Positions 1,597 to 52,682 of a stretch of DNA of 64,000 nt are shown piece after piece. The notes under the pieces were generated by a model. That model did not search any database and was not told the DNA's origin. It saw only the letters and a program-made list of their open reading frames with translations. This stretch comes from an uncultured Candidatus Saccharibacteria bacterium (GTDB lineage: Bacteria > Patescibacteriota > Minisyncoccia > Phycocordibacterales > PALSA-1337): assembly GCA_964532285.1 (NCBI GenBank), contig CAZHHB010000001.1:77916-141915 (forward strand), read 5' to 3'. Both the position numbers and the translations under genes were made by a program. The stretch's first letter is position 1. Each line of letters opens with the position of its first letter.

Positions 1597-3084
1597 ATGA
1601 AGAAAACCGCCAACAATACTATTCCACAGGAAATAGTCACCGTTGTAGAAACTCTCGAAAAGGGCGGATTTCAGGCATATCTCGTAGGAGGATGTGTCCG
1701 AGACATATTCCTAGGCCGAACGCCCAAGGATTGGGACGCTACAACCAACGCAACGCCAGATCAGATACAGAAATTATTCCCCAAGACCGTGTACGAGAAT
1801 ACATTTGGCACAGTAATAGTCATAAATGAACAAACCGAAGACGAAACATTGAGAAATGTAGAGATAACTCCCTACCGAATGGAGTCTAGCTATTCAGATC
1901 GCCGTCATCCCGATCAAGTCAAATTTAGCGATAAGATTGAGGATGATCTAAAGAGACGAGATTTTACAATCAACGCCATCGCAATCAACCTCTCAAATGG
2001 CGCTATAAAGGACACAATTGACTTATACGGCGGTTTTACTGACATAAAGGACAAAACCATCAGAACTGTTGGTGACTCTGTTGAACGCTTCTCTGAGGAC
2101 GCCCTACGCATGATCCGCGCCATCAGATTGGCTGTGGAATTAGGTTTCACGTGCAACAAAGAGACCTTCGCAGCCATAAAAAACCACAATTCAATGATAA
2201 AGGATGTTTCTATGGAGAGAATTCGTGACGAATTTGTGAAAATACTCATGTCCCCTGCCCCAAAACAAGGGATTGAACTGCTCCAAGAATCAGGAATACT
2301 CAAGTTTATAGCCCCAGAATTGGAAAAAGGTATGGGTGTGAAACAGCCACAAGCTCACGCTTATGATGTCTGGGAACACCTATTGAGGAGTTTACAGCAT
2401 GCCGCAGACAAGGAATGGCCCCTAGAAATAAGGCTTTCTGCCCTATTTCATGATATCGCCAAGCCACAGACTAGGGGGTTTTCTATTGAAACAAAACAAC
2501 CTACCTTCTATGGGCACGAAGTCGTTGGTTCACGTGAAACACGCAAGATACTAGAAAGAATGAAGTTTTCACGTGCAACCATTGAAAAGGTGGTTAAAAT
2601 GGTCCGTTGGCACATGTTCTTCTCTGATACTGGCATTGTCACGCTGTCAGCGGTCAGACGCATGATTGTTAACGTTGGCAGGGAAAACATCTGGGATCTC
2701 ATGAACCTCAGGATATGTGACCGTATCGGTACAGGCAGACCCAAAGAGAATCCTTATCGCCTAAGGAAATACAAATCGATGGTAGAGGAAGCTCTTCGAG
2801 ATCCGATCTCGGTATTAATGTTAAAGATTGATGGAAAGAAGATTATGGAAATAGGGAATATCCCCGCTGGCCCTAAAATTGGAATGGTCTTAAATGCTCT
2901 AATGGAAGAAGTTCTGGATGACACAAAACTAAATACTGAAGAATACCTATCCAGGAGAACCTTGGAGTTGCTAGCTCTGCCTGAGATGGAATTGGCTACA
3001 TTAGCAAGAAAAGGTAAGGAGAAAAAGGATCTTGAAGAGGAGAAGGGTATTGAAGAAATCAGAAACAAACACCATGTTTCATAA
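1597..3084 (+). CDS. cca: CCA-adding enzyme / tRNA nucleotidyltransferase with HD domain and C-terminal extension
   Basis: Contains the motifs GGCVRD..LG, DWD and RRDFTINA of the polymerase-beta nucleotidyltransferase head, followed by the HD motif LFHDIAKP. The ATG at 1597 follows an in-frame TTG at 1594. Confidence 0.8.
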   Translation: MKKTANNTIPQEIVTVVETLEKGGFQAYLVGGCVRDIFLGRTPKDWDATTNATPDQIQKLFPKTVYENTFGTVIVINEQTEDETLRNVEITPYRMESSYSDRRHPDQVKFSDKIEDDLKRRDFTINAIAINLSNGAIKDTIDLYGGFTDIKDKTIRTVGDSVERFSEDALRMIRAIRLAVELGFTCNKETFAAIKNHNSMIKDVSMERIRDEFVKILMSPAPKQGIELLQESGILKFIAPELEKGMGVKQPQAHAYDVWEHLLRSLQHAADKEWPLEIRLSALFHDIAKPQTRGFSIETKQPTFYGHEVVGSRETRKILERMKFSRATIEKVVKMVRWHMFFSDTGIVTLSAVRRMIVNVGRENIWDLMNLRICDRIGTGRPKENPYRLRKYKSMVEEALRDPISVLMLKIDGKKIMEIGNIPAGPKIGMVLNALMEEVLDDTKLNTEEYLSRRTLELLALPEMELATLARKGKEKKDLEEEKGIEEIRNKHHVS

Positions 3085-3092
3085 GATCTTAT

Positions 3093-3122
3093 GCCGAAGG
3101 TACCGAGCGTAGCGAAATGTCC
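3093..3122 (+). repeat. degenerate third copy of the 29-nt upstream motif found at xerC and pcrA
   Basis: gccgaaggtaccgagcgtagcgaaatgtcc matches gtcgaagacactgagcgtagcgaagtgtta at about 24 of 30 positions. The GTGTC/GACAC palindrome is lost and no gene follows. Confidence 0.4.
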
Positions 3123-3297: not shown

Positions 3298-3643
3298 CGC
3301 GACAGACACAGTTCTTTCCACAACAGGGTAGGCTCAATGCTCCTCTAGTTCGTTGTTGAAGTAAGCGGAAATATTTTTTCCAATCCTTCCATTGCTTGGG
3401 AATAATGACGGTGCAACTTGTCTCAATCACATATCAGTTCTCCTCCGGAGAACAAATTAATTTTAGACAACAGTGCCCATCGTCACCCACCAAAGAAATA
3501 GGAATGGTCTGGATTGATCAGATTCGATCTTTGGATCTGACGGTTCGTTTGTTCTTTCATTTTCGCTCGACTTCGAAGGCCGCGGTATGTACTTCTTTCT
3601 GAATTACCTCTACGCGGTTTTTCTTTTACTTGAAATAAAGTAT

Positions 3644-3803
3644 CGTAAAGTGGAACATTCCATGACGACACCCCTTTCGGAGCGCTGCTGAAGACCAACT
3701 CCGCATATTAATGACACCAGCGCGAGAAGAGACGGCCATGCGAGGTGTTCCGTTGTACGAGCAGGGCCGATCGTGGGTTCGGAATGGAATGTTCCACTTT
3801 ACG
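3644..3803. repeat. MITE-like element with a perfect 20-bp terminal inverted repeat and a ~120-bp GC-rich core
   Basis: cgtaaagtggaacattccat at 3644-3663 is the exact reverse complement of atggaatgttccactttacg at 3784-3803. The right arm abuts the xthA stop codon. Confidence 0.6.
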
Positions 3804-3815
3804 GCACTATTTAAT

Positions 3816-6892: not shown

Positions 6893-7099
6893 GATAGTGA
6901 ATAGATCTGATCTTGGTATAAAATTTAAGTCTATGTTACTCTGACGGTATACCAAGATCGGATCTTGATATATTACAAACTAATTTCGCCTCCAGATAGG
7001 CAGGTTTGTCCGTCTACATCATTCAATGACGGATCAAGTCTGAAATCTGAGGGCGAAAACGGTTGACCAAGATCGGATCTTGGTCAAACCGAAAATATT
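6893..7099 (+). promoter_or_regulatory. pnp leader carrying three related palindromes (ccaagatcNgatcttgg)
   Basis: The perfect 25-nt palindrome ttgaccaagatcggatcttggtcaa lies at 7065-7089. Partial copies lie at about 6902-6918 and 6948-6968. Confidence 0.45.
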
Positions 7100-9241
7100 A
7101 TGAATAAAAAAGAATACTCTATTGAGGTCGGTGGCAAGACTTTGTCTGCTGAATTCAATGATCTCGCAGATCAAACCAATGGTTCTGTGATGGTTCGTTA
7201 TGGCAACACCATAGTCATGGCCACAGCCGTCATGAGTAAGGAATTAAAAGAAGGTGATTTTTTTCCATTAACAGTTGATTACGAGGAGCGTTTTTATGCT
7301 ACTGGGAAAATATTGGGCTCAAGATTTATGCGCAGGGAAGGACGACCGTCCACTGACGCCATCCTTTCTGGACGTATTGTGGATCGCACCATTCGCCCTT
7401 TATTCAATCAGAAAATGCGCAATGAAGTCCAAATAATATTGACCACTATCTCTGTGGATCAAGATGATCCTGATGTAGTCTCTGTCATTGCTGCGTCACT
7501 CGCTTTGGGAACTTCCGATATTCCATGGAATGGTCCTGTTTCTGCTGTACGCATGGCAAAAGATGGCCAATGGATCATCAATCCCAACTTCAAAGCTAGG
7601 GAAGAAGCGGGTATAAGCATGGAAATGGTCGCTTGCGGTAAAGATGGCATGATAAATATGATAGAGGTTGGTAGCAAAGAAATCAGCGAAGACACTATGA
7701 ACGAAGCTTTGTCTGAGGCTTCAAAAGAGATAGAGAAAATCCAGAAATGGCAATCAAAAATAATCGCGGAAATAGGTAAGAAAAAAGTAAAAGTGGAAAT
7801 AGCAGAACCTACTCCTGGGACACAAGAACTTTTCGATAAAGAAATAAAGCCGAAACTTGCAAAATATATCATGAGCAACACTCCTGGTCACAAGAGTATC
7901 AATGAAATATCAAAAATGTGGACGGATTTATTCGTAGAGAAATTCCCAGAAGGTAATGTCTTGCTTGCTATGGAAATCTTTGAAGACGCAGTGAATGAGC
8001 TCTTACATAGTGAAGCTATAGACAACGATAAGCGTGCCGATGGCCGAACAATGGATGAGATCCGCCCCCTATTCGCCAAAGCTGGTGGAATATCACCGAT
8101 ATTGCACGGCTCAGGAACTTTCTACAGAGGAGGAACTCATATTCTATCCGTCTTAACTCTTGGAAGTCCCGGTGATGCTCAGGTTATAGATGCTTTGATC
8201 GTCCAAGAAGACAAGAGATTCATGCATCATTACAATTTTCCACCATTCTCTACCGGCGAGACCGGTCGTGTAGGCAATACAAACAGGAGGATGATAGGTC
8301 ATGGAGCTTTGGCGGAAAAAGCCCTGCTTCCAGTCATTCCGGAAAAAGCAAAATTCCCATACACTATCCGCCTAGTATCTGAAGCGATGGCCTCCAACGG
8401 TTCAACTTCTATGGGTTCCGTCTGTGGTTCAACCATAGCTCTAATGGACGGAGGTGTCCCCATCAAAGCCCCTGTCGCAGGTATTGCTTCTGGTCTCATG
8501 ATGCGTAGTCCAAAAGAATACAAAGTCCTCACCGACATCCAAGGTCCAGAAGATCATCATGGCGATATGGATTTCAAAGTGGCCGGTACCCGCGAAGGCA
8601 TAACAGCTGTTCAAATGGATGTGAAAGTTGGCGGAATACCACTCAAAATATTGGCCGAGGCTTTCGAAAAAGCCAAGTCAGCCCGTTTCCGCATCTTGGA
8701 TGTTATAGAGAAAGAGATACCGAAGCCACGAGCAAATATTTCTCCTAGTGCTCCCGAGATAATAATGATGAGTATCAAGCCTGATCAGATAGGTCTCGTC
8801 ATCGGTAGTGGAGGAAAGACGATAAATGAAATCCGCGATGTCACAGGAGTGGATGATATCACAATAGAAGATGATGGATCCATCTTCATCACAGGCAAAG
8901 AGGGTAGTGCAGCCAAAGCCAAGGAAATTATCTTCAATATGACACGAGAATATCTGCCGGGAGAGAAATTTGAAGGTGAAGTAGTTCGCCTCATGGACTT
9001 TGGAGCCTTCGTGAAGATTGGTCCGAACGCTGAAGGACTTGTTCATGTCTCCGAGATAGCACCATTCCGTGTAGAAAGAGTTGAGACTTATCTGAAAGAA
9101 GGGGACAAAGTTCCTGTGGCGGTAAAAGAAATAGATGATAAGGGCAGGATCAATCTTTCTATTAAGAATGCCAAACCTGACTTTTTCACAAAGAAGGAAG
9201 AAACTCCAAAACCTAGGACGGAATTCAAGAAGAGGTTTTAG
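7100..9241 (+). CDS. pnp: polynucleotide phosphorylase
   Basis: 713 aa with two RNase PH domains and KH and S1 tails. Typical motifs are GRxxDE.R.L and FGAFV.I. Confidence 0.9.
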   Translation: MNKKEYSIEVGGKTLSAEFNDLADQTNGSVMVRYGNTIVMATAVMSKELKEGDFFPLTVDYEERFYATGKILGSRFMRREGRPSTDAILSGRIVDRTIRPLFNQKMRNEVQIILTTISVDQDDPDVVSVIAASLALGTSDIPWNGPVSAVRMAKDGQWIINPNFKAREEAGISMEMVACGKDGMINMIEVGSKEISEDTMNEALSEASKEIEKIQKWQSKIIAEIGKKKVKVEIAEPTPGTQELFDKEIKPKLAKYIMSNTPGHKSINEISKMWTDLFVEKFPEGNVLLAMEIFEDAVNELLHSEAIDNDKRADGRTMDEIRPLFAKAGGISPILHGSGTFYRGGTHILSVLTLGSPGDAQVIDALIVQEDKRFMHHYNFPPFSTGETGRVGNTNRRMIGHGALAEKALLPVIPEKAKFPYTIRLVSEAMASNGSTSMGSVCGSTIALMDGGVPIKAPVAGIASGLMMRSPKEYKVLTDIQGPEDHHGDMDFKVAGTREGITAVQMDVKVGGIPLKILAEAFEKAKSARFRILDVIEKEIPKPRANISPSAPEIIMMSIKPDQIGLVIGSGGKTINEIRDVTGVDDITIEDDGSIFITGKEGSAAKAKEIIFNMTREYLPGEKFEGEVVRLMDFGAFVKIGPNAEGLVHVSEIAPFRVERVETYLKEGDKVPVAVKEIDDKGRINLSIKNAKPDFFTKKEETPKPRTEFKKRF

Positions 9242-14159: not shown

Positions 14160-16094
14160 ATGACCACCTTAAATGAAGCGCAGGAAAGGGCAGTAACGAC
14201 CACCGATGGACCGGTTTTGATTGTAGCTGGGGCGGGAGCAGGTAAAACGAGAGTTATCACGCACAGAATATTGAATTTAATCAAAAAGGGTGCTGAACCG
14301 CGTTCCATATTGGCGATAACATTCACCAACAAATCCGCCAAGGAAATGCGGGATAGGGTTTCAGCCTTGCTGACTGATGATAAAGGCCTCAATCTGCCTA
14401 TTTCCATGACAAGCAGACCGTTCGTAAGCACATTCCATGCTTTGGGTGTCCACATTATACGAGAAAATGCTGGACTCTTGGGACTGACACGACATTTCAC
14501 AATATACGATCGTTCAGATTCGAAAAAAGTCATCAAAGAGTCAATGATCCAGTCGTCAGTTGATCCGAAGAAGTTTGAACCTGGAACTGTGTTGAACATG
14601 ATCTCAAGAGCCAAGGGTGAGGGATTTGGCAGGCTAGAATACGCAGATCATGCCAAAGACTTTACCGAGGAGATGGTGGCTGGTATTTGGGAGAAGTATG
14701 AGGCGATATTGGCAAAAGAAAAAGCTCTTGATTTCGATGATTTGCTCTTGAAAACTGCTCAACTCCTGGGAAGGAATGAGGCTGTGCGAAAACATTATAG
14801 TTCCACATGGAAATACATCCATGTCGATGAATACCAAGATACAAATCGTGTTCAATATCAGATAGTAAAATACTTGGCAGAGGAACATCGGAATATCTGC
14901 GTCGTGGGAGATGCTGATCAAAACATATACAGCTGGAGAGGAGCTACTATAGAAAACATATTGAATTTTGAGAAGGATTATCCAGAAGCTACTGTTATCA
15001 CACTAGAAAAAAACTACAGATCAACAAAAACCATACTTGCGGCGGCGAATAATGTCATAGAAAAGAATCGTATGCGCAAAAAGAAAACTTTGTATACAGA
15101 CAATGATCATGGAGATAAAATTTCACTCTTGGTTTCGTATACCGATGCAGATGAAGCGCGTATGATAGCAGACACGGCTCGCGAAATAATCGAAAAGGGG
15201 ACTTCTCCCAGAGAAATTGCCATCTTGTATAGAACAAATTTCCAATCTCGTATCTTGGAAGAGGCATTTATCAAGAAAAATATCCCTTACCAGATGCTCG
15301 GTACGCGTTTCTTTGAAAGAAAAGAAGTGAAGGATGTTTTGTCGTACATTCGAGCGGCTTTGAACAGAGATTCCATGGCAGATATAGGCAGAATCATCAA
15401 TGTGCCGACGCGTGGCATAGGCAAAGCGACGATTGCGAAGGTTATGTCTGGGGCAGAGGCGTCATTGCCGCCAGCAATGAAATTAAAAATCTCTAATTTC
15501 TGGAAACTGCTTGATGATATAAGTAAAGAAATCTTGGAAAAGAAACCTTCAGAGTCAGTAAGATTCGTCATCCGAGAAACGGGTATTGAGAAACAATTAC
15601 TAGAAGGGGACAGTGAGGATGAAGAGAGGCTGTTAAATATTCGTGAACTAGTTTCTGTGGCAACACAATACGATCACCTGAAGCCAGAAGAAGGCATTGA
15701 ATCCCTACTAGCGAATGCAGCTCTGGCGACAGATCAGGATGATTTACAGAAAAATGAAGACGCTGTGAAACTGATGACGGTTCACGCATCGAAAGGACTT
15801 GAGTTTGAATATGTTTTTATCGCTGGATTGGAACAGGAACTATTTCCATTCAAACATCTGGATGAAGAAAATATAAACGAAGGCGAAGAGGAGGAGGAAC
15901 GCCGTTTGTTCTATGTGGCTTTGACTAGAGCGAAAAAGAAAGTATATTTAAGTTACGCTATCATTCGTACGATATATGGGGCTCAAAAAGTCAGTGCTCC
16001 GTCGGAATTCATTGAGGACATAGAAAAGAGGTTGATAGAGGATCATGTTCCAGAGAAGCCAAGTGGTGCAAAAGCGTTATTTATTGATTTTTAA
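14160..16094 (+). CDS. pcrA: UvrD/PcrA/Rep-family ATP-dependent DNA helicase
   Basis: Walker A GAGAGKT, the DEYQDTN motif and helicase motifs III-VI. Confidence 0.85.
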   Translation: MTTLNEAQERAVTTTDGPVLIVAGAGAGKTRVITHRILNLIKKGAEPRSILAITFTNKSAKEMRDRVSALLTDDKGLNLPISMTSRPFVSTFHALGVHIIRENAGLLGLTRHFTIYDRSDSKKVIKESMIQSSVDPKKFEPGTVLNMISRAKGEGFGRLEYADHAKDFTEEMVAGIWEKYEAILAKEKALDFDDLLLKTAQLLGRNEAVRKHYSSTWKYIHVDEYQDTNRVQYQIVKYLAEEHRNICVVGDADQNIYSWRGATIENILNFEKDYPEATVITLEKNYRSTKTILAAANNVIEKNRMRKKKTLYTDNDHGDKISLLVSYTDADEARMIADTAREIIEKGTSPREIAILYRTNFQSRILEEAFIKKNIPYQMLGTRFFERKEVKDVLSYIRAALNRDSMADIGRIINVPTRGIGKATIAKVMSGAEASLPPAMKLKISNFWKLLDDISKEILEKKPSESVRFVIRETGIEKQLLEGDSEDEERLLNIRELVSVATQYDHLKPEEGIESLLANAALATDQDDLQKNEDAVKLMTVHASKGLEFEYVFIAGLEQELFPFKHLDEENINEGEEEEERRLFYVALTRAKKKVYLSYAIIRTIYGAQKVSAPSEFIEDIEKRLIEDHVPEKPSGAKALFIDF

Positions 16095-16158
16095 CCCTAC
16101 TGCGCTCAGACAGTCCTCGGCTTTCAAAAATAAATACTCAACCGAACAAAATAACATA

Positions 16159-16935
16159 ATGAAACTGCAACCGAAAAAATCGTTAGGACAACACTTCTTA
16201 AATTCCAAACATGTACTTGATCAGATTATTTCGGCTGGAGAGATCAAGAGTGGTGAAAGTGTGTTGGAAATAGGCCCTGGTACGGGTATTTTGACAACTG
16301 CATTATTGGAAGCGGGCGCAAAAGTCATTGCTGTAGAAAAAGATAGACTGGCATGTGAATTACTAAAGAGTAAGTTTTCAAGACAAATTGCCGACAAACA
16401 ACTTGAACTGATTGAGGGAGATATTCTAGATGAAAAAACTTTCAACTCTTACGCACTAATCGCCAATATCCCTTATTACATCACCGGCGCTATCTTAGAA
16501 AAATTCCTAGAGTATGAACCTCGACCCAACCGTATGGTTTTATTGGTACAAAAAGAGGTTGCGGACCGCATCGTGGCTTTGAATGGGAAGGAAAGTGTTC
16601 TGTCCATATCTGTAAAAGCTTTTGGTACGCCGAAAATAATCGCCAAAGTACCACCAGGAGCATTTACACCACCACCAACAGTTGATTCAGCGATACTTTC
16701 AATCAAAAACATCAACGACAATCATTTTGTAAATAAATTAACCGGCAAAAAGGCTGATGTATCTGAGTTTTTCAAAATAGTCAAAGCGGGATTCGCCCAT
16801 AAGCGTAAATACCTGATCCGTAATCTTGAGTCTGTAATCGCGCCAGAGAAACTCTCACAAATCTGGCAAGAAAATAAGTTTGATCCGAAGATTAGGGCTG
16901 AAGATCTCAAGTTAGAACAATGGTTTTGTTTTTGA
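16159..16935 (+). CDS. rsmA: 16S rRNA (adenine1518/1519-N6)-dimethyltransferase
   Basis: Contains KSLGQHFL, the GPG.G.LT SAM motif and NIPY. The start is trimmed to the ATG at 16159. Ends with a TGA stop. Confidence 0.85.
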   Translation: MKLQPKKSLGQHFLNSKHVLDQIISAGEIKSGESVLEIGPGTGILTTALLEAGAKVIAVEKDRLACELLKSKFSRQIADKQLELIEGDILDEKTFNSYALIANIPYYITGAILEKFLEYEPRPNRMVLLVQKEVADRIVALNGKESVLSISVKAFGTPKIIAKVPPGAFTPPPTVDSAILSIKNINDNHFVNKLTGKKADVSEFFKIVKAGFAHKRKYLIRNLESVIAPEKLSQIWQENKFDPKIRAEDLKLEQWFCF

Positions 16936-16940
16936 GCCCA

Positions 16941-17096
16941 GCAAATATGTTTTTGTGACAGTCTGCGGTACTCGCTCCGTGAAATTGCTAGGTAAAAGGC
17001 TCAGGAATTGTAAACAATTCCAACGACATTCGCCTTTTACCAAGCAATTTCCACTGCGCTCAGACATGTCCTCGACTGTCACAAAAACATATTTGC
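16941..17096. repeat. structured repeat element, copy 1: 23-bp perfect outer inverted repeat around a 111-bp conserved core
   Basis: The outer arms gcaaatatgtttttgtgacagtc and gactgtcacaaaaacatatttgc are exact reverse complements. The core at 16964-17074 matches 37530-37640 at 110 of 111 positions. The core folds as a long stem (gaaattgctaggtaaaaggc / gccttttaccaagcaatttc) around the hairpin ggaattgtaaacaattcc. Confidence 0.7.
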
Positions 17097-17106
17097 CGAG
17101 CTATAA

Positions 17107-17451
17107 CTAAATACTAGAACCGTGATATAGGATAGGGAATCCTTCGCCCATGAAAACATAGGCAAGCATGCAGGGTGTCGGCACATAAGAAGCCATGCCA
17201 ATAAGCCACTGCTGTGGATGTGGAACTATATGCATGAGGTAAGGAAGATTGCCCCAATTCCACATAAGAGTAATTGGTCCCCTCATTGGTTGATATACAT
17301 AGAGTAAAAGGCCATTATTGCACGGTTGTATAGACATTACTCGTCCTCCGAAGGGCATACCTATGCCTTGGGCATTCAATAGTAATGGCATGGAGATAAT
17401 GAGCAGAAAAACAATACAAAATAAATAGAGTCCGTGATGATTTTGATTCAT
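17107..17451 (-). CDS. small secreted hypothetical protein
   Basis: N-terminal signal peptide. No recognisable family. Confidence 0.3.
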   Translation of the reverse strand: MNQNHHGLYLFCIVFLLIISMPLLLNAQGIGMPFGGRVMSIQPCNNGLLLYVYQPMRGPITLMWNWGNLPYLMHIVPHPQQWLIGMASYVPTPCMLAYVFMGEGFPILYHGSSI

Positions 17452-22839: not shown

Positions 22840-23274
22840 ATGCGATTCCAAGTTCCCCAATTTATAGAGGTAGAGGATAAGATTTTCGGACCAATCTCCT
22901 TGAAGCAATTCATCTATCTCGCTGGCGGGGGAGGACTGTCATTCTTGGTATATCTTTTCCTAGGCAACTTATTCTTCGCAGCCATACCGATCGCTATCAT
23001 CATGGCCATATCTCTAGCTCTGGCTTTCTACAAACTCAACGGCAAACCATTCATCAGTGTTATGGAGTCGGCCTTCAAATATTACCTCGGCAACAAACTC
23101 TATATTTGGAAGAAGCAGGAGAAAACTCCGCCGAAAGATGTTCAAACAGCCGTCAAAGATGTCAAAAATTACGCCTCCATCATGGTTCCGAAAATATCTG
23201 ATAGCAAACTGAAAGATCTGACATGGAGTTTGGATATAAAGGAGAGTGTTTATTCCAACAAGAATCAAAGGTAG
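22840..23274 (+). CDS. PrgI-family (VirB3-like) small membrane protein
   Basis: The N-terminus MRFQVPQFIEVEDKIFGPISLKQFIYLAGGG with two TM helices matches the PrgI family. It lies directly upstream of the VirB4 homologue. Confidence 0.55.
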   Translation: MRFQVPQFIEVEDKIFGPISLKQFIYLAGGGGLSFLVYLFLGNLFFAAIPIAIIMAISLALAFYKLNGKPFISVMESAFKYYLGNKLYIWKKQEKTPPKDVQTAVKDVKNYASIMVPKISDSKLKDLTWSLDIKESVYSNKNQR

Positions 23275-23282
23275 AAAATAAT

Positions 23283-23930
23283 ATGGCCACAACAGCACCA
23301 CAAAAAACAACTCAGGATTTCGTTCCCATCCAAGAAATACGCGATGGGGTAATAATCCTGAAAAATGGAGGAATGCGAGGTATTTTGTTGGCCTCATCAT
23401 TGAATTTTGCCTTGAAATCAGAAAATGAACAGGGTTCTATCCTGATGCAATTCCAAAATTTCTTGAATTCACTAGACTTCTCCATTCAGATCTTCATCCA
23501 ATCAAAAAAGCTAGATATTAGACCGTATACTGCACTTTTGGAAGACCGCTACAGAGAACAACAGAGTGAACTTATGAAGATACAAGTTCGCGAATACATA
23601 GAATTCATAAAGACTTTCGTAGAAAGCACGAACATAATGTCAAAAAGTTTCTTCGTGGTCATACCTTATGATCCCGCTATTCTGAGTGCCGGCAAAAATC
23701 CATTAAACAAGATGTTCCCTGGAAAAAATAAAGGAAAGACCGATACTGAAACCAACGAAAACCAATTCCAAGAATACCGAAGTCAGTTGGAACAACGTAT
23801 GGCGGTAGTAGAACAAGGCCTCGTCCGCTGTGGTATACGCGCCGCTGAGTTGGGAACTGAGGAGGTGGTAGAATTGTATTACAAACTGTTTAATCCTGGG
23901 GAGACGGAGAAGCCGATACAGATAACATAA
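23283..23930 (+). CDS. VirB4/TraC N-terminal-domain-like protein (possible split VirB4)
   Basis: 216 aa immediately upstream of the VirB4 ATPase gene, separated by 1 nt and in a different frame. The two proteins together total about 820 aa, the size of an intact VirB4. Confidence 0.35.
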   Translation: MATTAPQKTTQDFVPIQEIRDGVIILKNGGMRGILLASSLNFALKSENEQGSILMQFQNFLNSLDFSIQIFIQSKKLDIRPYTALLEDRYREQQSELMKIQVREYIEFIKTFVESTNIMSKSFFVVIPYDPAILSAGKNPLNKMFPGKNKGKTDTETNENQFQEYRSQLEQRMAVVEQGLVRCGIRAAELGTEEVVELYYKLFNPGETEKPIQIT

Positions 23931-23931
23931 T

Positions 23932-25746
23932 ATGTCATTCATTTCAAAAATATTCGGTAAAAAAGAACCAGACCAAATAGTTTCCATCCTGCCCGAGGAA
24001 ATCTATCAGGCTGGTGTTTTGGAATTGAAAGATATCATTGCGCCATCGGCTCTCAAGATAAGCCCAAAGGAATTAAATCTGGGAGAAAAAGTTGGTCGTA
24101 CATTCTTCGTAATATCGTATCCGCGCTTCCTAGATGAAAGCTGGTTCGCACCTATCATCAATCTAGACAAAGTATTCAATGTTTCCATATTCATCCATCC
24201 TGTTGATACAGCCAAGATCTTGAAACATTTCCAAAAGAAAGTCGCTGAAGTCCAAAGCCAGATCTCCAGGAGGGAAGAGAAAGGATTGGTGCGCGAACCC
24301 TCACTAGATACGGCCTACCAAGACCTAGAACAGCTTCGCGATCAGCTCATGCAAGCCCAGGAACATCTATTTGATGTTGGTGTATACATCACACTGTTCG
24401 CTGATTCTGATGGCGAACTAGACAAACTGGAGTCAGAGATCAAATCCATCCTTGAGTCAAAACTTGTCTATGTCAAACCAGCTTTATTCCAACAAGAACA
24501 AGGCTTCAAGAGTGTTATCCCGATAGGTGACGACCAGCTCGCCGTCCATTCCAAACTCAATTCTTCACCGCTTTCTTCATTATTCCCATTTGTATCTTTT
24601 GATCTGACATCAGACAAAGGTATTTTGTATGGGATCAACAGACACAACTCTTCTCTAGTTCTGTTTGACCGTTTCTTGTTGGAAAATTACAATTCCGTGA
24701 CATTTGCTGTAGCTGGAGCTGGTAAATCATACTGCACCAAGCTGGAAATATTGCGTACATTGATGTTTGATACTGATGTTATCGTCATTGATCCAGAGAA
24801 AGAATACGAGTACATGGCAGAAGCCACGGGCGGCAAATACTTCAATATATCCCTGAACTCTGAACATCATATCAACCCATTTGATCTACCTATACCACGC
24901 GAAGATGAGTCTGCCAGTGACGTTTTGCGCTCCAATATCATCAATCTTGTTGGATTATTCCGCATCATGTTGGGTGGCTTGAGTCAGGAGGAAGATGCCA
25001 TCATAGATCGCGCCATCACCGAAACTTACGCCTTGAAAGATATCACTCCGGAATCTGATTTTCGTAATGTTGAACCACCACTATTGTCAGACTTTGAATT
25101 GGTCTTGGCTGGCATGGAAGGAGCAGACTCTCTGGTTCAGAGACTTTCCAAATATACCAAGGGCACCTGGGCTGGTTTCATCAACCGTCCATCAAATGTA
25201 GATATAAATAAAAAGTTCGTAGTCTTCTCTCTGCGCGATATGGAAGATGAATTGAAGCCGGTAGCTATGTATATCGTCACTCACTATATATGGAATGCTA
25301 TCCGCAAAAATCTCAAGAAGCGTTTGTTGGTCATTGATGAGGCTTGGTGGATGATGAAATCAGAAGATACGGCTTCATTCTTGTTCAGCCTGGCAAAACG
25401 CGGCCGCAAATACTTCCTTGGACTGGCGACGATCACTCAAGATGTGGATGACTTCTTGAAATCACCTTATGGTCTGCCAATACTTACGAACTCCTCTATT
25501 CAGATTCTGTTGAAACAATCGCCGACAATCATAGACCATATCCAGCAAACATTTAATCTAACAGATGAAGAAAAGTATTTGCTTCTAGAGTCAGATGTAG
25601 GAGAGGGTATGTTCTTCGTAGGACTCAAACATGTGGCCATAAAGATAGTGGCTTCATATACCGAAGACCAAATTATCACCACCAATCCTGCCCAGGTTAT
25701 GCAGATCGCTCAAGCAAAGAAGGATTTGGAAGCAGCGGGCGGGTAA
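23932..25746 (+). CDS. VirB4/TrbE/CagE-family conjugal-transfer-type ATPase
   Basis: Walker A AVAGAGKSY, Walker B LLVIDEAW and the C-terminal RKY..G....TQ motif. Confidence 0.75.
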   Translation: MSFISKIFGKKEPDQIVSILPEEIYQAGVLELKDIIAPSALKISPKELNLGEKVGRTFFVISYPRFLDESWFAPIINLDKVFNVSIFIHPVDTAKILKHFQKKVAEVQSQISRREEKGLVREPSLDTAYQDLEQLRDQLMQAQEHLFDVGVYITLFADSDGELDKLESEIKSILESKLVYVKPALFQQEQGFKSVIPIGDDQLAVHSKLNSSPLSSLFPFVSFDLTSDKGILYGINRHNSSLVLFDRFLLENYNSVTFAVAGAGKSYCTKLEILRTLMFDTDVIVIDPEKEYEYMAEATGGKYFNISLNSEHHINPFDLPIPREDESASDVLRSNIINLVGLFRIMLGGLSQEEDAIIDRAITETYALKDITPESDFRNVEPPLLSDFELVLAGMEGADSLVQRLSKYTKGTWAGFINRPSNVDINKKFVVFSLRDMEDELKPVAMYIVTHYIWNAIRKNLKKRLLVIDEAWWMMKSEDTASFLFSLAKRGRKYFLGLATITQDVDDFLKSPYGLPILTNSSIQILLKQSPTIIDHIQQTFNLTDEEKYLLLESDVGEGMFFVGLKHVAIKIVASYTEDQIITTNPAQVMQIAQAKKDLEAAGG

Positions 25747-29957: not shown

Positions 29958-29985
29958 CTATTAATGTGACGGATTGCGCAGGCAG

Positions 29986-30125
29986 CGCCCAGCAAATTAT
30001 TTTGGGCGCAGCTGCGTGTTAGTCTTCCGAGTTATTGGTTGGCGAGCCATAGTCTGCCTCAGAGAAGCATAGACTGACGCACCCATCGCATACTCGCCGT
30101 CGCCCAAAATAATTTGCTGGGTGCC
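29986..30125. terminator. long inverted repeat (~25-bp arms, ~90-nt spacer) between convergent genes
   Basis: gcgcccagcaaattattttgggcgc pairs with cgcccaaaataatttgctgggtgc. It lies between the end of the T4SS-like operon and yidC. Confidence 0.45.
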
Positions 30126-30135
30126 GCCTGCATCA

Positions 30136-36972: not shown

Positions 36973-36983
36973 TAGAAACTAGT

Positions 36984-37061
36984 ATAGCGCCAAGCGAGGA
37001 TTTATGAAAGTTTATTTTCATAAAATCCGAGCGCAGGCGATATATGAGCGAAGCGAATATG
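36984..37061 (-). promoter_or_regulatory. conserved ~80-nt leader element, copy B, upstream of PBP1A
   Basis: The reverse complement matches copy A block by block: ttatattcgcttcgctcatatatcg .. gcgctcggatt-hairpin-aatcctcgcttgGcgctata. The hairpin stems differ by paired compensatory substitutions. It ends about 12 nt before the PBP1A ATG. Confidence 0.5.
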
Positions 37062-37064
37062 ACA

Positions 37065-37403
37065 CTACTGCTCCCATTTGTCACCAAAAGGGTTGAGTTC
37101 GTCGTCATCCAAACTAACTTCTTCCGATGTGGTTTCGTCAGTTTCTTCTTCTGGGATGAGGGGGTCAACTTCGGGTTTTTCGTCAGTACCAATGACTGGC
37201 TCTGGGAGATCGAGCTCCAAAGGTTTCTTGGATTTGGTTGGTGGAATATCCATGACTTCTTCCGTCTCGGTATGAGATTCCTCCACACGTGTCTCACTTT
37301 TTGTTTTTTTGTTTTGAGCGTGTTTTGTTGGCATACACTTAGTTTTTACATTGCTAAATTTAGTGCGTGCATATGTTGTAACAAAGACGCAATCCTTTTG
37401 CAA
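37065..37403 (-). CDS. acidic hypothetical protein
   Basis: K-rich N-terminus and a D/E-rich C-terminal half. No family recognised. Confidence 0.3.
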   Translation of the reverse strand: MQKDCVFVTTYARTKFSNVKTKCMPTKHAQNKKTKSETRVEESHTETEEVMDIPPTKSKKPLELDLPEPVIGTDEKPEVDPLIPEEETDETTSEEVSLDDDELNPFGDKWEQ

Positions 37404-37500
37404 GAAAGGGGAGTTGGGGATAATGATGAAGTTTCGAAGCGGGAAACGATATTACATTCCGAACCCACGATCGGCCTTGCTCGCGCCACAGAGTAGCTCA

Positions 37501-37670
37501 CAAGGCGAATAATAGTTCCTCTCGCCAGCCTGCGGTACTCGCTCCGTGAAATTGCTAGGTAAAAGGCTCAGGAATTGTAAACAATTCCAACGACATTCGC
37601 CTTTTACCAAGCAATTTCTACTGCGCTCAGACATGTCCTCGGCTGTTTCGAGGAACTATTATTCGCCTTG
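37501..37670. repeat. structured repeat element, copy 2: 21-bp perfect outer inverted repeat around the same 111-bp core
   Basis: The outer arms caaggcgaataatagttcctc and gaggaactattattcgccttg are exact reverse complements. The core at 37530-37640 matches copy 1 with one mismatch. It lies just downstream of ruvC. Confidence 0.7.
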
Positions 37671-38192
37671 CCGTCTTAACCCACCTCTCGCTGCGTGTGT
37701 GAGTGCTACAGCAATAGCATCGTATTCATCGTCAACCCTTTTCTTTTTTGTCATTGCGACCAGCAAATCCACCATTTTTATGATACGCGACTTGTCACTG
37801 GAGCCATCGCCTGTTACCGCAACTTTTATCTCCATTGGAGTATATTCAAATATAGGAATATCTCGTTTGATAGCCTCATGCATGATGATGCCGCGGATCT
37901 CCGAGACACGCATAGCAGTCTTTTGATTTTTCGTTATGAATAAATTTTCAATTGCTAAAACATCCGGTTTATATTCATTGAAGACGCGGTCAACTTCCAT
38001 ACCGACTTTTTTAAATCTAGAGTAGATATCTTCTTTTGAAGAAGTTTGTAGACACGATGAATACAATACAGTTTCTTTGCCCTTCGTGGGTTTTTCAATC
38101 ACGGCAATACCGAGGCGATCATAGCCGGGATCTATTCCCAGGATTCGAAGTCTTGCGCCAGATTGAACTTTATTCGGCATTGGTGAAGACAT
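37659..38192 (-). CDS. ruvC: crossover junction endodeoxyribonuclease RuvC
   Basis: ILGIDPG motif followed by acidic catalytic residues. Confidence 0.8.
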   Translation of the reverse strand: MSSPMPNKVQSGARLRILGIDPGYDRLGIAVIEKPTKGKETVLYSSCLQTSSKEDIYSRFKKVGMEVDRVFNEYKPDVLAIENLFITKNQKTAMRVSEIRGIIMHEAIKRDIPIFEYTPMEIKVAVTGDGSSDKSRIIKMVDLLVAMTKKKRVDDEYDAIAVALTHAARGGLRRQGE

Positions 38193-38700
38193 CCTGAACT
38201 TCTTCGTTATTTTCCAATTCTTCTACAAGCTTGGTCAATGTTTCTATGTCGGCATCTTCTAGCGGCATAGTTGTGGTCGGTGTCCATCCGTCATTGGTCT
38301 TCTGGAAAGCCCATGAAGCACTGCCTGGGGAAGCGAGCTCGAAACCATTGAGTGACAAGATGTGTTTTATCTCCTGCGCGGCCTTGTTGCGGTTGTCTGT
38401 CAGGGCTGAGATAAGTATAGCGACGCCTCCTGGCCCGTATGATTCATAGATGATGGATTCCATAGCGGCGCTATTATCAGTCATGGCCTTTTTCACAGCA
38501 CGATCTATAGTGTCATTGGGCATATTCTCTTTGCGAGCTTTTTCTATTGCTGATGCCAAACCAGGTGAAGTCAGATTGCCGTGAGCTTTCTTGGCCTCAA
38601 CGGTTATCAACCTTACGAATTTACCGAAATGCTTGCTCTTTTGGGCATCATTCTTGGCCTTGAGGTGTTTTATCTTTGAGAATTTATTGTGTCCTGACAT
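38170..38700 (-). CDS. YebC/PmpR-family protein, shortened (176 aa versus about 245 aa)
   Basis: The N-terminus MSGHNKFSKIKHLKA..DA.K.K.F.K is the YebC signature. The middle domain appears to be missing. The gene overlaps the ruvC start by 23 nt. Confidence 0.65.
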   Translation of the reverse strand: MSGHNKFSKIKHLKAKNDAQKSKHFGKFVRLITVEAKKAHGNLTSPGLASAIEKARKENMPNDTIDRAVKKAMTDNSAAMESIIYESYGPGGVAILISALTDNRNKAAQEIKHILSLNGFELASPGSASWAFQKTNDGWTPTTTMPLEDADIETLTKLVEELENNEEVQDVFTNAE

Positions 38701-39839: not shown

Positions 39840-40127
39840 GAAGCAAAAAACAAAGCGTAGATTAGGGGGTATTTTCGAGCTCACGAACCTCTAAGCAATG
39901 GCCTTCCCAGGTTTGGGCATAGTTCTAAGGACATTCTGGTTGCAATGCTTCGGTATTGCGTACTGGAATTCTCCTCGGGACTGTGCCTCGCGCGACGCAT
40001 CACGCGTTGCGATATTGCTTAGAGATTCTCGCGCTTGAATCTCTCCGAGAACGCTTCTGTTGGCATCCTAGCGCTGTCCACAGGAAAAAGGCAAGTGACA
40101 AGTGACGCCGAACATGGTGAATAGTTT
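39840..40127. other. GC-rich non-coding segment with long-range complementarity (candidate structured RNA)
   Basis: No ORF of at least 60 aa. ctctaagcaat at 39888 pairs with attgcttagag at 40016. A hairpin gagattc..gaatctc is present. It shares gattaggggg(t)at with 5745. It occupies the position upstream of ruvB where ruvA is usually found. Confidence 0.25.
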
Positions 40128-44705: not shown

Positions 44706-47210
44706 ATGACCGCAAAAGTTATCCATGATAAAAAAAGATTGGTTTTGCTTGATGCTCACGCCATATTACATCGCGCATATCACGCTCTACCGGATTTCTC
44801 TACAGCCAAGGGTGAACCGACCGGTGCACTGTATGGTCTGTCGGCGATGCTTCTTAAAATTATTGAAGATTTGAAGCCGGATTACATAGTGGCTTGTTAT
44901 GATGTGAAGGGTCCGACCTATCGGCATGAAGCTTACAAAAAATACAAGGCTGGGAGGAAAGCGGCCGAAGATGACCTCGTCGCTCAGATGATAAGTTCAC
45001 GCAGAGTGTTTGAAGCATTCAATATCCCTATATATGACAAACAAGGTTTCGAGGCGGATGATATTTTGGGGACGATAGTAGAACAAATCACCCCCACACC
45101 CTCTCGGCCCGACGCGGTCTCCCTTCGTTTCGCTTCGCGAAAGTCGGGAGACGCGTCGCTGCCTGCGGGTGTGGGAGCGGTCGAGATAATCATAGCATCT
45201 GGCGATATGGATACTTTGCAATTGGTCAGTGGCAAAGATGTGAAGGTCTATACTTTGAAGAAGGGTTTGAATGACACGATTATGTATGACGAGGACGCTG
45301 TTAACAAGCGTTTTGGTTTTGGTCCGGAACTCATACCTGATTACAAGGGACTTCGTGGAGATCCATCGGATAACATCATTGGCGTGAAGGGTATAGGCGA
45401 GAAAACTGCCACGATATTGATCACGACATTTGGGACTATTGAAAATATGTATAAGGAGTTGGAGGCTGGTAATGACAATAAATTCAAAAAGGCTGGCATT
45501 ACTCCGCGCATCATTCAATTACTCAGAGACAATAAAGAAGAGGCAGAATTCAGTAAAATGCTGGCTACAATCCGTCGTGATGCACCGATAACATTTGAAT
45601 TGCCTAAGAAGACTTTCAGAGATGATTTGGATTTGAGGAAAGTGAAAAATCTATGGAATGAATTGGAGTTCAGGACATTGGGGCAGAGGCTAGATAAAGT
45701 TATGCATCCTGTAGTTGGGAACAAGATTGATGTGGGTGTTGTTGATGGGGAAGAGAGTTATAAAGTTAAAAGTGCAGAAAACACAAACCAACAGTCACTT
45801 TATGAGGCTGTTTCCAGTGATGAATTAGAGAAAACAGGTATAGCCCTGTGGCTTATTAATTCCAATATCGTAAACCCGAAACTTGAAGATGTTTTGAATT
45901 TTGTGAATACAGAAGACTTTGAGATTGCCAAGAAAAAGATATTTGAAGAATTGGATCACCTAGATCTGCGCAAGGTTTATGAAAACATTGAATTACCCCT
46001 GATCCCAATCACTCACAAGATGGAAGAATGTGGGGTAAAAATAGATCGTGTTGTATTACAAAACTTGGCGAAAACATATCACGCCGAAGTAGATAGGTTG
46101 AATAAAGAGATAACGAAATTGGCCGGCATGGAATTCAATATAAACTCCCCAAAACAACTAGGCGAAGTTTTGTTTGATAAATTGGGTCTAGTCGGGAAAA
46201 ATATGAAGAAAACTTCTGGCGGGGCGCGTTCTACTAGAGAATCAGAATTGGAGAAACTCCGCGGTTCGCACCCGATCATCCCTTTGATATTTGAACATCG
46301 CGAACTGCAAAAACTCCTATCTACTTACATAGATGCCATACCGCCGCTTCTGGATGACAAAGACAGATTGCATACCGATTTCATACAATCAGGCACTACT
46401 ACTGGTCGCATGGCTTCGCAGACACCAAATCTACAGAATATCCCGATCAAAACAGAACTCGGCAAAGCTATACGCAATGCTTTTATTGCGGAGAAAGGAT
46501 TCAAACTCTGTAGTTTTGATTATTCACAGGTGGAGCTTCGCATCGCTGCCTTTTTGTCCGGTGATGAGAAATTGTTGGAAATATTCCGAAAAGGGGAAGA
46601 CGTACATACTTCGGTAGCATCTTTCGTATTCAAGGTTCCGCGAGACGAAGTCACTCCAGCTATGCGTCGTCAGGCAAAGGTTATTAATTTCGGAATAATA
46701 TATGGCATGGGAGTGATGGCATTGAAACAAAATCTTGATACGACCAGAGATGAGGCGCAGAAGTTTTTGAATAGTTATTTTGAAACATTCAAAACCCTCG
46801 CTGATTATCTAGATAATGTGAAGAAGGAAACGGGGGAGCGCGGATACACGACTACTTTCTTCGGTCGCAGACGATCTTTCGAAGGCATAAATTCCAAGAT
46901 TCCATATATAAAGGCGGCGGCAGAACGCATGGCGATAAATGCTCCGATCCAGGGGACTGGAGCTGATATTGTGAAGTTGGCGATGATAAAGATAGATGGA
47001 TATATTAGGAAAAATAATTTGGAGAAAGATGTTTTTCCATTACTCCAGGTGCACGATGAATTGGTCTGTGAAATCCGTAATGAAAAAGCAAAGGATATTT
47101 CGTCTGAAATCCAGAAGATAATGGAGTCGGTGGTTGATCCGAAAGACATCAAGGGTATTGTATTGAAGTCATCGGCTTCTGTTGGTGATAATTGGGGAGA
47201 GCTCAAGTAG
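44706..47210 (+). CDS. polA: DNA polymerase I
   Basis: 5'-nuclease domain (LLDAHA.LHRAY..) plus the family A polymerase motifs A, B and C (DYSQVELR, RRQAKVINFGIIYG, VHDE). Confidence 0.9.
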   Translation: MTAKVIHDKKRLVLLDAHAILHRAYHALPDFSTAKGEPTGALYGLSAMLLKIIEDLKPDYIVACYDVKGPTYRHEAYKKYKAGRKAAEDDLVAQMISSRRVFEAFNIPIYDKQGFEADDILGTIVEQITPTPSRPDAVSLRFASRKSGDASLPAGVGAVEIIIASGDMDTLQLVSGKDVKVYTLKKGLNDTIMYDEDAVNKRFGFGPELIPDYKGLRGDPSDNIIGVKGIGEKTATILITTFGTIENMYKELEAGNDNKFKKAGITPRIIQLLRDNKEEAEFSKMLATIRRDAPITFELPKKTFRDDLDLRKVKNLWNELEFRTLGQRLDKVMHPVVGNKIDVGVVDGEESYKVKSAENTNQQSLYEAVSSDELEKTGIALWLINSNIVNPKLEDVLNFVNTEDFEIAKKKIFEELDHLDLRKVYENIELPLIPITHKMEECGVKIDRVVLQNLAKTYHAEVDRLNKEITKLAGMEFNINSPKQLGEVLFDKLGLVGKNMKKTSGGARSTRESELEKLRGSHPIIPLIFEHRELQKLLSTYIDAIPPLLDDKDRLHTDFIQSGTTTGRMASQTPNLQNIPIKTELGKAIRNAFIAEKGFKLCSFDYSQVELRIAAFLSGDEKLLEIFRKGEDVHTSVASFVFKVPRDEVTPAMRRQAKVINFGIIYGMGVMALKQNLDTTRDEAQKFLNSYFETFKTLADYLDNVKKETGERGYTTTFFGRRRSFEGINSKIPYIKAAAERMAINAPIQGTGADIVKLAMIKIDGYIRKNNLEKDVFPLLQVHDELVCEIRNEKAKDISSEIQKIMESVVDPKDIKGIVLKSSASVGDNWGELK
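45090..45180 (+). repeat. in-frame GC-rich palindromic insertion inside polA
   Basis: cccacacc ... ggtgtggg and cgacgcggtctccc ... gggagacgcgtcg. It encodes about 27 extra residues (TPTPSRPDAVSLRFASRKSGDASLPAGVGA) at a position where E. coli PolI has about 10. Confidence 0.45.
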
Positions 47211-47335
47211 GAAAGAGCGGTGGCATTTTATTTCCAAGGACGCGGATATTTTCCTGCTGGAAAATTCCTAGTGCTCGCGCCAGTCGCGCTCGCAGTGTCC
47301 TTGGAAATAAAATGTCACCGCTCTTTCCTTACTCG
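47211..47335. repeat. 32-bp near-perfect inverted repeat around a ~55-bp GC-rich core (polA-holA spacer)
   Basis: ggaaagagcggtggcattttatttccaaggac pairs with gtccttggaaataaaatgtcaccgctctttcc, with one mismatch. Confidence 0.55.
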
Positions 47336-48705: not shown

Positions 48706-48900
48706 ACGTTTTCAATTCTAAAGAAAGATTACTCCATGCCAGATTATTGTCAATTTATGCATCAACTTACAAAAAGGTGATTGCACAAAGCGTATTTTGT
48801 GATAATCTGTCAATTATCCTCTAGATTTGTTTATTGCGCCCATAGAAGGTTGGCGAAAGGTTAGTCGTTCCTTAAATTTAAAAACATTCTTTAAATATAT

Positions 48901-48973
48901 GCGCCCATAGCTCAGGTGGTAGAGCAACTCCCTTTTAAGGAGTGGGTCGTTGGTTCGAATCCAACTGGGCGCA
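48901..48973 (+). tRNA. tRNA-Lys (anticodon TTT)
   Basis: Acceptor GCGCCCA/TGGGCGC, D-arm TAGCTCAGGTGGTAGAGCA, anticodon stem ACTCC/GGAGT with loop CTTTTAA, T-arm GTTGG-TTCGAAT-CCAAC. Confidence 0.85.
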
Positions 48974-52215: not shown

Positions 52216-52682
52216 AGAATACCCCAGTACTTAACAGCTGTTCCTTTGCGTAAAACTAAGTTATAACACATTCAAATCGGCTTTTGTATAGGTAACACCA
52301 AGTTTGTATGTTTTCCATAGAATATCCATAGTTTTCTAATAACTCGTCTTACCCGACATATATCATAGCTCTATCATAGGTCTTTCCAGTAACATTCATG
52401 GTTTTTCTATCTTTAAATCTTAGGTTTTCTAAGGTTCTCTAAGTTATTCACAAATAATCATTTGGTGCTATGATACGGATACAACTGAATATCGTGAAAG
52501 TAGCCTAAACTAGTAAGTAATTATTAGCATGGCAAAAAATCCCATGGAAGATACTGAACCCCACGTTCAGCGCTCTTCCATGGGTTATACCGGGAAACTG
52601 GTATAGAAGCCGTAAGGCTTTGCTGGCGTGGGGCTTAGTGTTTATACACTGACCCCCTACCATAAACTGTGGGTCTTTTTGC
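52216..52682. repeat. iteron-like direct repeats and a nested hairpin (candidate element origin)
   Basis: Repeated ccatagaata / catag units and ttctaaggttctctaag. A hairpin cccatggaaga..(ctgaac cccacg ttcag)..tcttccatggg lies at 52541-52585. Confidence 0.35.

Follow-up and report, generated by a model that had tools for sequence, protein, structure and literature searches.

In a 64,000-nt stretch of contig CAZHHB010000001.1 from an uncultured Candidatus Saccharibacteria bacterium (hereafter the window, to which coordinates refer unless a relative is named), we examined two short noncoding elements, copies A and B, that carry a nearly identical structured core inside long, perfect outer inverted repeats of unrelated sequence. 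These are the two full copies of the core in the window. Sequence comparison with other hairpin elements indicates that core and outer arms assort independently, and orthologous junctions in relatives show that the whole hairpin is extra DNA. [quoted passage not shown] Palindromic selfish DNA is a known kind of element; what is unusual here is its modular core-and-scaffold behavior.

A direct-repeat search returned the A/B core as the sole long direct-repeat family of the window, spanning 121 nt at 98% identity (16959-17079 and 37526-37646). An initial annotation, made from the sequence alone, had described a 111-bp shared core with one mismatch, and the shorter alignment bears this out (110 nt, 99.1% identity, one mismatch). 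Likeness between the copies breaks off sharply at both core ends; this rules out the larger segmental duplication that the annotation had considered possible. Three differences separate the cores over the longer alignment, namely one C/T substitution beside the 3' strand and a compensatory pair at the core edge (CAGTC/GACTG versus CAGCC/GGCTG). The core is about 110-130 nt long and asymmetric, consisting of two non-complementary conserved strands around a co-varying stem-loop. Its inner stem (16981-17000/17032-17051) has 20 nt per arm with one conserved A.A mismatch and encloses a perfect 7-bp hairpin, GGAATTGTAAACAATTCC, at 17004-17021, in agreement with the annotated stem of roughly 20 bp around a perfect hairpin. 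The outer repeats are likewise as first described, perfect over 23 bp in copy A (29 nt if two transition mismatches are allowed) and over 21 bp in copy B, and are unrelated to each other (shuffle p = 0.41). In copy B, a non-complementary 4x4-nt bubble lies between arm and core and is followed by the CAGCC/GGCTG pair. The cores are thus 98-99% alike even in their freely co-varying stems, despite unrelated arms. Folded whole, both copies reach -77 to -88 kcal/mol on either strand (z about -11).

Both copies abut genes closely. Copy A makes up 168 of the 171 nt in the convergent spacer between the stop codons of rsmA (16935) and of a gene for a small secreted protein (17107-17451, minus strand), and ruvC (37659-38192, minus strand) takes its final three codons and stop from the right arm of copy B. 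The window spans rnpA-yidC-dnaA-dnaN, and A and B flank the likely origin on opposite sides and on the same strand. L010, an independent contig from ENA, also contains copy A in full, and two contigs from Logan terminate within the core, as a repeat would cause. An assembly artefact was considered and ruled out by independent assemblies and by independent metagenomes with the same architecture.

Table 1. Copies A and B, their parts, and other long-stem elements and fragments in the window
Feature	Position	Strand	Remarks
Copy A, whole element	16935-17102	+	fills convergent spacer 3' of rsmA
Copy A, left outer arm	16935-16963	+	perfect over 16941-16963; two transition mismatches in outermost 6 nt
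Copy A, right outer arm	17074-17102	+	perfect over 17074-17096
Core, conserved 5' unpaired strand	16963-16980	+	CTGCGGTACTCGCTCCGT; 16/16 fixed positions the same in L015
Inner stem with apical hairpin	16981-17051	+	pairing retained in L015 through compensatory changes
Core, conserved 3' unpaired strand	17053-17074	+	ACTGCGCTCAGACATGTCCTCG; no complementarity to the 5' strand
Copy B, whole element	37501-37670	+	perfect arms 37501-37521/37650-37670, 21 bp
Solo remnant of the core 3' strand	16097-16133	+	ACTGCGCTCAGACA-GTCCTCGG..., in the 64-nt pcrA/rsmA spacer
I1	3639-3808	+	20-bp perfect outer arms 3644-3663/3784-3803, imperfect inner stem; convergent spacer
I1-type fragment	37458-37506	-	80% over 49 nt; directly adjoins copy B
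I3	29978-30131	+	core unlike that of copy A; convergent spacer 3' of yidC
I2	47209-47329	+	33-nt arms, 1 mismatch; directly after the polA stop codon
I6	39874-40039	+	26-nt arms, 81%; strongly structured core; between ruvB and its upstream gene

Copies A and B are two of six such elements in the window, the other four (I1, I2, I3 and I6) also being long-range inverted repeats. Perfect long-range inverted repeats with arms of at least 16 nt and spacers of 30-260 nt occur five times, against 0.0 expected from 30 resampled windows. Of the additional elements listed in the initial annotation, I1 has the 20-bp perfect repeat given for it. I2 is real, with 33-nt arms and 1 mismatch (47209-47241/47297-47329) rather than a 32-bp repeat with one mismatch, and its annotated end (47335) was a few bases off. 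I3 is also real, although its arms (29988-30008/30101-30121) are perfect over 21 bp, or extend to 31 nt with 2 mismatches, in place of the 25 bp assigned to it. Placement at gene ends or in convergent spacers holds for all six: four occupy convergent spacers, and the spacers of the other two are co-directional, with the element downstream of a gene.

I3 provides the counterpart to the A/B comparison. Its arms are ~77% identical to those of copy A along their full length (p = 2e-4 for the left arm, 0.004 for the right), and an 11-mer, GCCCAGCAAAT, recurs in the arms of both elements (16936-16946 and 29987-29997, and 30112-30122 on the minus strand). The cores of I3 and copy A have no significant similarity (p = 0.56), with collinear resemblance only over the first ~30 nt, which opens with a common CAG-CTGCG start. 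Copies A and B therefore share a core and not arms, while A and I3 share arms and not a core, so that core and arms behave as separable modules. The homology between the arms of copy A and I3 further implies that arms are heritable modules and are not made fresh each time. Short motifs common to unrelated cores (CTCGC, CTGCG) or arms (AGCAA) were not significant after correction, and a regular-expression search with a "superfamily" 3' motif matched mostly within coding DNA.

We placed these elements in an evolutionary context using 80 rsmA-centered loci from relatives (807 kb) and eight added loci, about 0.99 Mb in all. By its RsmA homologues, the source organism belongs with the Patescibacteria (Paceibacteria/Parcubacteria-like), its nearest relatives reaching at most 69% identity. 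The initial annotation had proposed looking for an empty site downstream of rsmA, and this comparison was informative. Among eight relatives with a converging homologue of the secreted-protein gene whose C-terminus was matched, the spacer measures -11, -8, -4, -4, 0, 7, 13 and 63 nt, versus 171 nt in the window. In the seven relatives with spacers of -11 to +13 nt, no long hairpin could have pre-existed. The single clean empty-site case concerns an I2 core homologue, 88% identical, at ~405-495 of L035, where it lies in frame inside pcrA (63-1388). The insertion measures 87 nt, exactly 29 in-frame PcrA residues that are extra relative to the window and L015 and that fall between two conserved motifs. 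The 87-nt insert includes both arms, neither of which matches the target.

Related hairpin families behave in the same manner. L029 carries three copies of another family (1446-1624, 8110-8292 and 8375-8503), ~80% identical, within 11.5 kb; their arms are homologous between copies, and every change in one arm has its counterpart in the other. Through such mirrored changes, arms remain complementary even where copies have diverged. L026 has two copies of a further family with identical arms. Such families occur in several copies, break down into fragments, gather at permissive junctions and may lie in frame within a gene.

The junction between pcrA and rsmA is a hot spot, being empty or short in six relatives, occupied by hairpins elsewhere, and holding a solo core fragment in the window (junction at 16095-16158). 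It is essentially spacer-less in L013, L015 and L016 and short in L091, L093 and L097, where gene coordinates put it at 12-28 nt. Unrelated long-arm hairpins occupy it in L011 (2695-2824), L021 (9894-10001) and L096 (~2900-3095), with perfect arms of 25 bp, 38 bp and about 46 bp, respectively. The right flank of the solo fragment was considered as an inverted copy of the pcrA 3' end and rejected (z = 0.46 versus shuffles; the repeat is an 11-nt A/T run). The longest "RsmA" open reading frame (ORF) in the window, 296 aa, begins within pcrA and crosses the core-fragment spacer (16045-16158). The true rsmA start is the ATG at 16159 (MKLQPKKSLGQHF...), and public calls of 290-296 aa carry a false extension.

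Two origins for the outer arms had been put forward in the initial annotation, insertion into terminator stem-loops and inverted duplication of the target on insertion. The first would have cores entering pre-existing terminator or repetitive extragenic palindromic (REP)-like hairpins that then became the outer arms. Simple long perfect hairpins with 22-43-nt loops, which could serve as such targets, do occur in L012, L017, L021, L011, L038, L039 and L066, one family being common to two genomes (L017/L066), and REP palindromes are well-known targets of insertion sequences (PMC3184786). The orthologous junctions, however, lack any hairpin, and just two short-loop palindromes in the window have arms of 12 nt or more, both belonging to another kind. 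Moreover, the arms are AT-rich, with neither a T tract nor a G+C-rich stem, and in copy A and L015 the core is not flanked by loop remnants. A terminator search found no terminator-like site on the outer stems, the one site in copy B being a local 7-bp stem inside the element. The G+C-rich short-loop stem and T tract of an intrinsic (Rho-independent) terminator are absent. The arms are not old terminators, and we regard this origin of the palindromes as very unlikely. The annotated idea of hairpin-targeting elements survives only in modified form, as cores that may enter or swap between palindromic scaffolds; literal insertion into terminator hairpins does not.

The second origin supposes that the core is mobile and that neighboring DNA is newly duplicated in inverted orientation when the core inserts, or when its own hairpin primes fold-back (snap-back) synthesis. 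Such a process would account for arms that are perfect, copy-specific and continuous with the terminal pairing of the core, for arm mismatches (3-6%) of the same order as A/B core divergence, and for a copy B arm that takes in the ruvC stop and three codons. An extra piece in L015 (7995-8037), 25 nt 3' of its complete element, also fits, since its inverted left-arm segment (22 nt) continues ~15 nt into the start of the core, a product expected of aberrant copying from a hairpin primer. The L035 insertion argues otherwise, as both arms are inside the insert and unlike the target. Nor did the ancestral rsmA junction offer appreciable spacer to copy. By eye, the copy A arms have no convincing similarity to the neighboring gene ends, the lone overlap being a low-complexity 8-mer, TGTTTTTG, common to the rsmA 3' end and the inner left arm. 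The same arms have homologues in I3, at another site in the genome, the L029 and L026 families inherit their arms, and copy B has a non-complementary bubble between arm and core. There is no evidence that the outer arms copy target flank, and we consider de novo arm formation unlikely.

The core is not confined to the two window loci, a possibility that would have weakened the initial proposal. In addition to the solo fragment, a homologue with 70% identity (E about 1e-15) occurs at 7781-7978 of L015, a distant relative whose RsmA is 64% identical to that of the window. It lies in a divergent spacer upstream of pcrA rather than at a gene end, and its outer stem is a third unrelated perfect repeat, of 35 bp. 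None of the pairwise outer-arm comparisons among A, B and L015 indicates relatedness (p = 0.41 for A/B, 0.17 for A/L015 and 0.90 for the remaining pair). The unpaired strands of the core are near-invariant between the window and L015 (5', CTGCGnnACTCGCTCCGT; 3', ACTGCGCTCAGACAnGTyCTCG). In the inner stem, 6 of 26 pairs are changed on both sides, none on one side only, and one pair is unpaired, with the A.A mismatch kept; the apical hairpin is longer in L015 through an 18-nt insertion. Of the cells in the inner-helix count, 98.7% are paired, and slid controls collapse. Shuffles never reached the observed value in four of five measures, and 6 of 500 did so for the count of further pair types. 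The structural constraint on the core that the annotation had suggested is thus upheld.

Such a pattern is also what a functional structured RNA would produce. The core could be a small RNA, a protein-binding module of a 3' untranslated region or a self-cleaving ribozyme whose closing helix, P1, is free to vary. The double-stranded outer stem would then act as an RNase III-type processing or stabilizing clamp, and the copies would be gene duplicates, not selfish DNA. Near-invariant unpaired strands, helices that co-vary between the window and L015, and very stable folds all suit this explanation. Three of the four copies or fragments (copy A, the solo fragment and the L015 copy) are sense to the pcrA-rsmA operon, and most window elements lie directly past stop codons. 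Genomic context is less accommodating: copy B is antisense to ruvC and has no convincing upstream gene or promoter, the L015 copy sits in a divergent promoter spacer, a truncated core remnant exists, and sister families act as insertions, one of them in frame in pcrA. Pairing also argues against RNA, in that the stems are almost free of G.U pairs (0 of 26 in the inner stem and 1 of 56 in the full predicted structure, at the arm/core bubble of copy B) and the copy A arm mismatches read as A.C on the rsmA-sense strand. Compensation at the RNA level would not be expected to yield perfect stems of 21-35 bp. Rfam 15 gave no match to the elements at gathering score, and at E<=10 returned only two weak microRNA-precursor look-alikes (23 and 16 bits versus cut-offs of 73 and 100). 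Taken together, we judge a functional RNA rather unlikely.

The combination of matching cores and unrelated arms might instead reflect conversion. Under this explanation, A and B would be long-separated paralogues from a single palindromic family, with arms that drifted apart and cores that gene conversion, anchored in the conserved strands, has recently homogenized. Where A and B differ, they do so at the core edges, the compensatory Y/R pair lying outside the conserved strands and the C/T substitution beside the 3' strand. Related elements have common end motifs such as CAG-CTGCG, and window and L015 arms are unrelated at 30% core divergence. The longest invariant tracts usable as recombination anchors, though, are only 11-22 nt, the limits of conversion would have to coincide symmetrically with both core edges, and the resemblance between the arms of copy A and I3 is left unexplained. 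We find this history decidedly improbable.

Our preferred interpretation, mobile cores within palindromic scaffolds, takes the unit under selection to be the asymmetric core at the center of a long outer palindrome with perfect Watson-Crick pairing. The conserved unpaired strands beside the stem may be the recognition sites of a trans-acting enzyme that would act on folded single-stranded or cruciform DNA, in the style of HUH/Y1 enzymes or hairpin recombinases. Cores would move into, or swap between, existing palindromic scaffolds, and the joining of core to arms could occur either by targeted insertion at the palindrome center or by conversion between related elements. Intrastrand template switching, in which one arm is copied from the other, would keep the arms perfect as DNA, in place of compensation at the RNA level. 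We favor DNA-level constraint or repair because pairing is almost entirely Watson-Crick, the arm mismatches are transitions without strand bias, arm changes are mirrored and L015 carries an extra inverted partial copy.

Several points weigh against this interpretation. Full copies of the core total only three in about 0.99 Mb of the clade, and covariation support comes from two independent lineages only. Conserved unpaired nucleotides with co-varying helices are also the signature of a functional RNA; near-invariant strands and a co-varying stem suit a protein reading both sequence and structure and a functional RNA equally. No transposase, HUH enzyme or reverse transcriptase is encoded within the window, where the recombinases are one XerC/D-like tyrosine recombinase and one large serine recombinase at tRNA-Lys, in a low-GC island. 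Insertion at palindrome centers predicts loop remnants, and a bubble (4+4 nt) is present in copy B alone. Long stretches of identity would not be available for conversion between elements that differ by about 30%. Lastly, A and B lie on the same strand across dnaA, contrary to a strictly lagging-strand-specific single-strand mechanism, an observation that concerns two copies only.

Searches for further copies were negative. A covariance model (R1) built from the three full copies (A, B and L015) found no further copies in the surveyed relatives. A scan of a genome collection with the 19-mer of the apical hairpin returned only chance matches to the palindrome itself. A core 19-mer had 0 matches in metagenome and viral scans, and a two-motif pattern had 0 in the viral scan. 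Translations of the two open frames of the core gave no candidates among 5.8 billion proteins, a collection from which the core-spanning ORFs of the window are also absent. BLAST comparison of the element with phage and plasmid collections gave no match.

Comparison with described systems places the elements nearest to palindromic and MITE-like repeats. RPEs are about 105-146 bp long (Ogata et al. 2000, summarized in PMC3184786). Like them, the present elements are noncoding, hairpin-forming repeats of 100-170 nt in a small, reduced genome, comprise several families, occupy spacers and have no evident transposase; in-frame insertion into a protein gene is also shared, here by the I2-family element in pcrA of L035. 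When RPEs are taken as repeated palindromes of 100-150 nt able to insert in frame, the correspondence thus extends to size, fold and the L035 pcrA case. Phylum and sequences differ, so the likeness is one of functional analogy. RPE families are conserved in sequence over their whole length, whereas here the same core can have an unrelated outer 20-35 bp, and the present core, unlike RPEs, contains a pair of conserved strands that are not complementary.

Bacterial MITE-like repeats with long terminal inverted repeats (TIRs) include Correia, ERIC and Nezha, among others (PMC3184786, PMC2229807, PMC10969869). Similar size, whole-length folding, location at gene ends, extension or replacement of gene 3' ends and non-autonomy are common to both groups. 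MITE families, however, share one TIR and make target-site duplications, whereas the present arms differ between copies with the same core. No direct repeat flanks copy A (TTTTTG/ATAACT), copy B (GCTCA/CCGTC) or the L035 insertion (GCCGGG/TCAGCG), as read from the sequence. The elements therefore have neither hallmark of a classical (DDE-type) MITE, a shared TIR or a target-site duplication, and the initial argument that they are not transposase-mobilized MITEs stands.

REP and REPIN elements are mobilized by RAYT (Y1/HUH) enzymes, and some insertion sequences target REP palindromes (PMC3733652, PMC3184786). A hairpin with adjacent conserved single-stranded nucleotides, as found here, suits such enzymes; stems are likewise kept by mirrored changes, and palindromes would again be insertion targets. 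REPs are 20-40 nt, G+C-rich, highly repeated and marked by a GTAG/CGTC tag, in contrast to the present untagged elements of 120-170 nt with unique AT-rich arms. A short, G+C-rich tagged palindrome is thus not what we observe, and the window has no RAYT gene. The palindrome-associated transposable elements (PATEs) derived from IS200/IS605 resemble the core in their asymmetric, non-inverted ends, the lack of target duplication and the central role of a hairpin. The core agrees with PATEs in having neither inverted repeats at its conserved ends nor a target duplication. PATEs differ in bearing a subterminal hairpin at each end and inserting 3' of a fixed tetra- or pentanucleotide; the present elements have a single central stem-loop, and the bases 5' of the core are CAGT, CAGC and AAAC. 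A full-text search within a paper library found no paper on palindromic or MITE-like elements in Patescibacteria.

Other features of the window are recorded here for completeness. The ruvC-PBP1 spacer (~690 nt; region 36973-37500), which includes the I1-type fragment beside copy B, is probably noncoding debris. A 150-aa ORF at 37044-37496 is oddly F/W/C-rich, has no family match and is absent from the protein collection. A YebC/PmpR-like ORF (38170-38700, minus strand) that overlaps the ruvC start encodes only 176 aa, which match a 245-position profile over positions 1-137; it may be either truncated or a short form. A conserved type IV secretion-like cluster (PrgI / TraC-like / VirB4-TraG-like, 22840-25746) lies 3' of rsmA and is syntenic in L091, L093 and L097. 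Two perfect 12-bp palindromes (6909-6959 and 7063-7087), both with CCAAGATC, lie just 5' of the PNPase gene (7100-9241) and may form a leader structure or operator. An island of 35% G+C at about 48.9-58 kb starts at tRNA-Lys (48900-48976) and the large serine recombinase gene (48935-50551). Within it is a full-length LOOT RNA (RF03000) at 52502-52621 on the plus strand (98 bits versus a cut-off of 46). LOOT has been described from environmental sequences, with no classified host known; the island bearing it is probably an integrated element in a Patescibacteria chromosome.

Bacteria of the candidate phyla radiation have tiny, tightly packed genomes that are thought to be poor in repetitive DNA. 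The lineage studied here shows diverse long-stem palindromic insertions that are turning over, fill convergent spacers and repeatedly strike one operon junction. They rewrite gene 3' ends and can be accommodated in frame by an essential helicase. On the practical side, the elements break short-read assemblies and create spurious ORFs and false N-terminal extensions, such as the 296-aa "RsmA". Textbook MITE, REP or RPE models do not explain the independent assortment of core and perfect palindrome, which gives a tangible starting point in the search for the enzyme or RNA function involved. A more speculative and, in our estimation, unlikely prospect is that the core is the substrate of an undescribed Patescibacteria mobilization system that reads hairpins, or else a new class of catalytic or regulatory RNA specific to the radiation. 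Such a system would insert a cassette of roughly 110 nt at the exact center of a palindrome, or swap cassettes, while keeping the palindromes perfect. If true, this would be a modular "core-in-scaffold" mobile element without a known counterpart.

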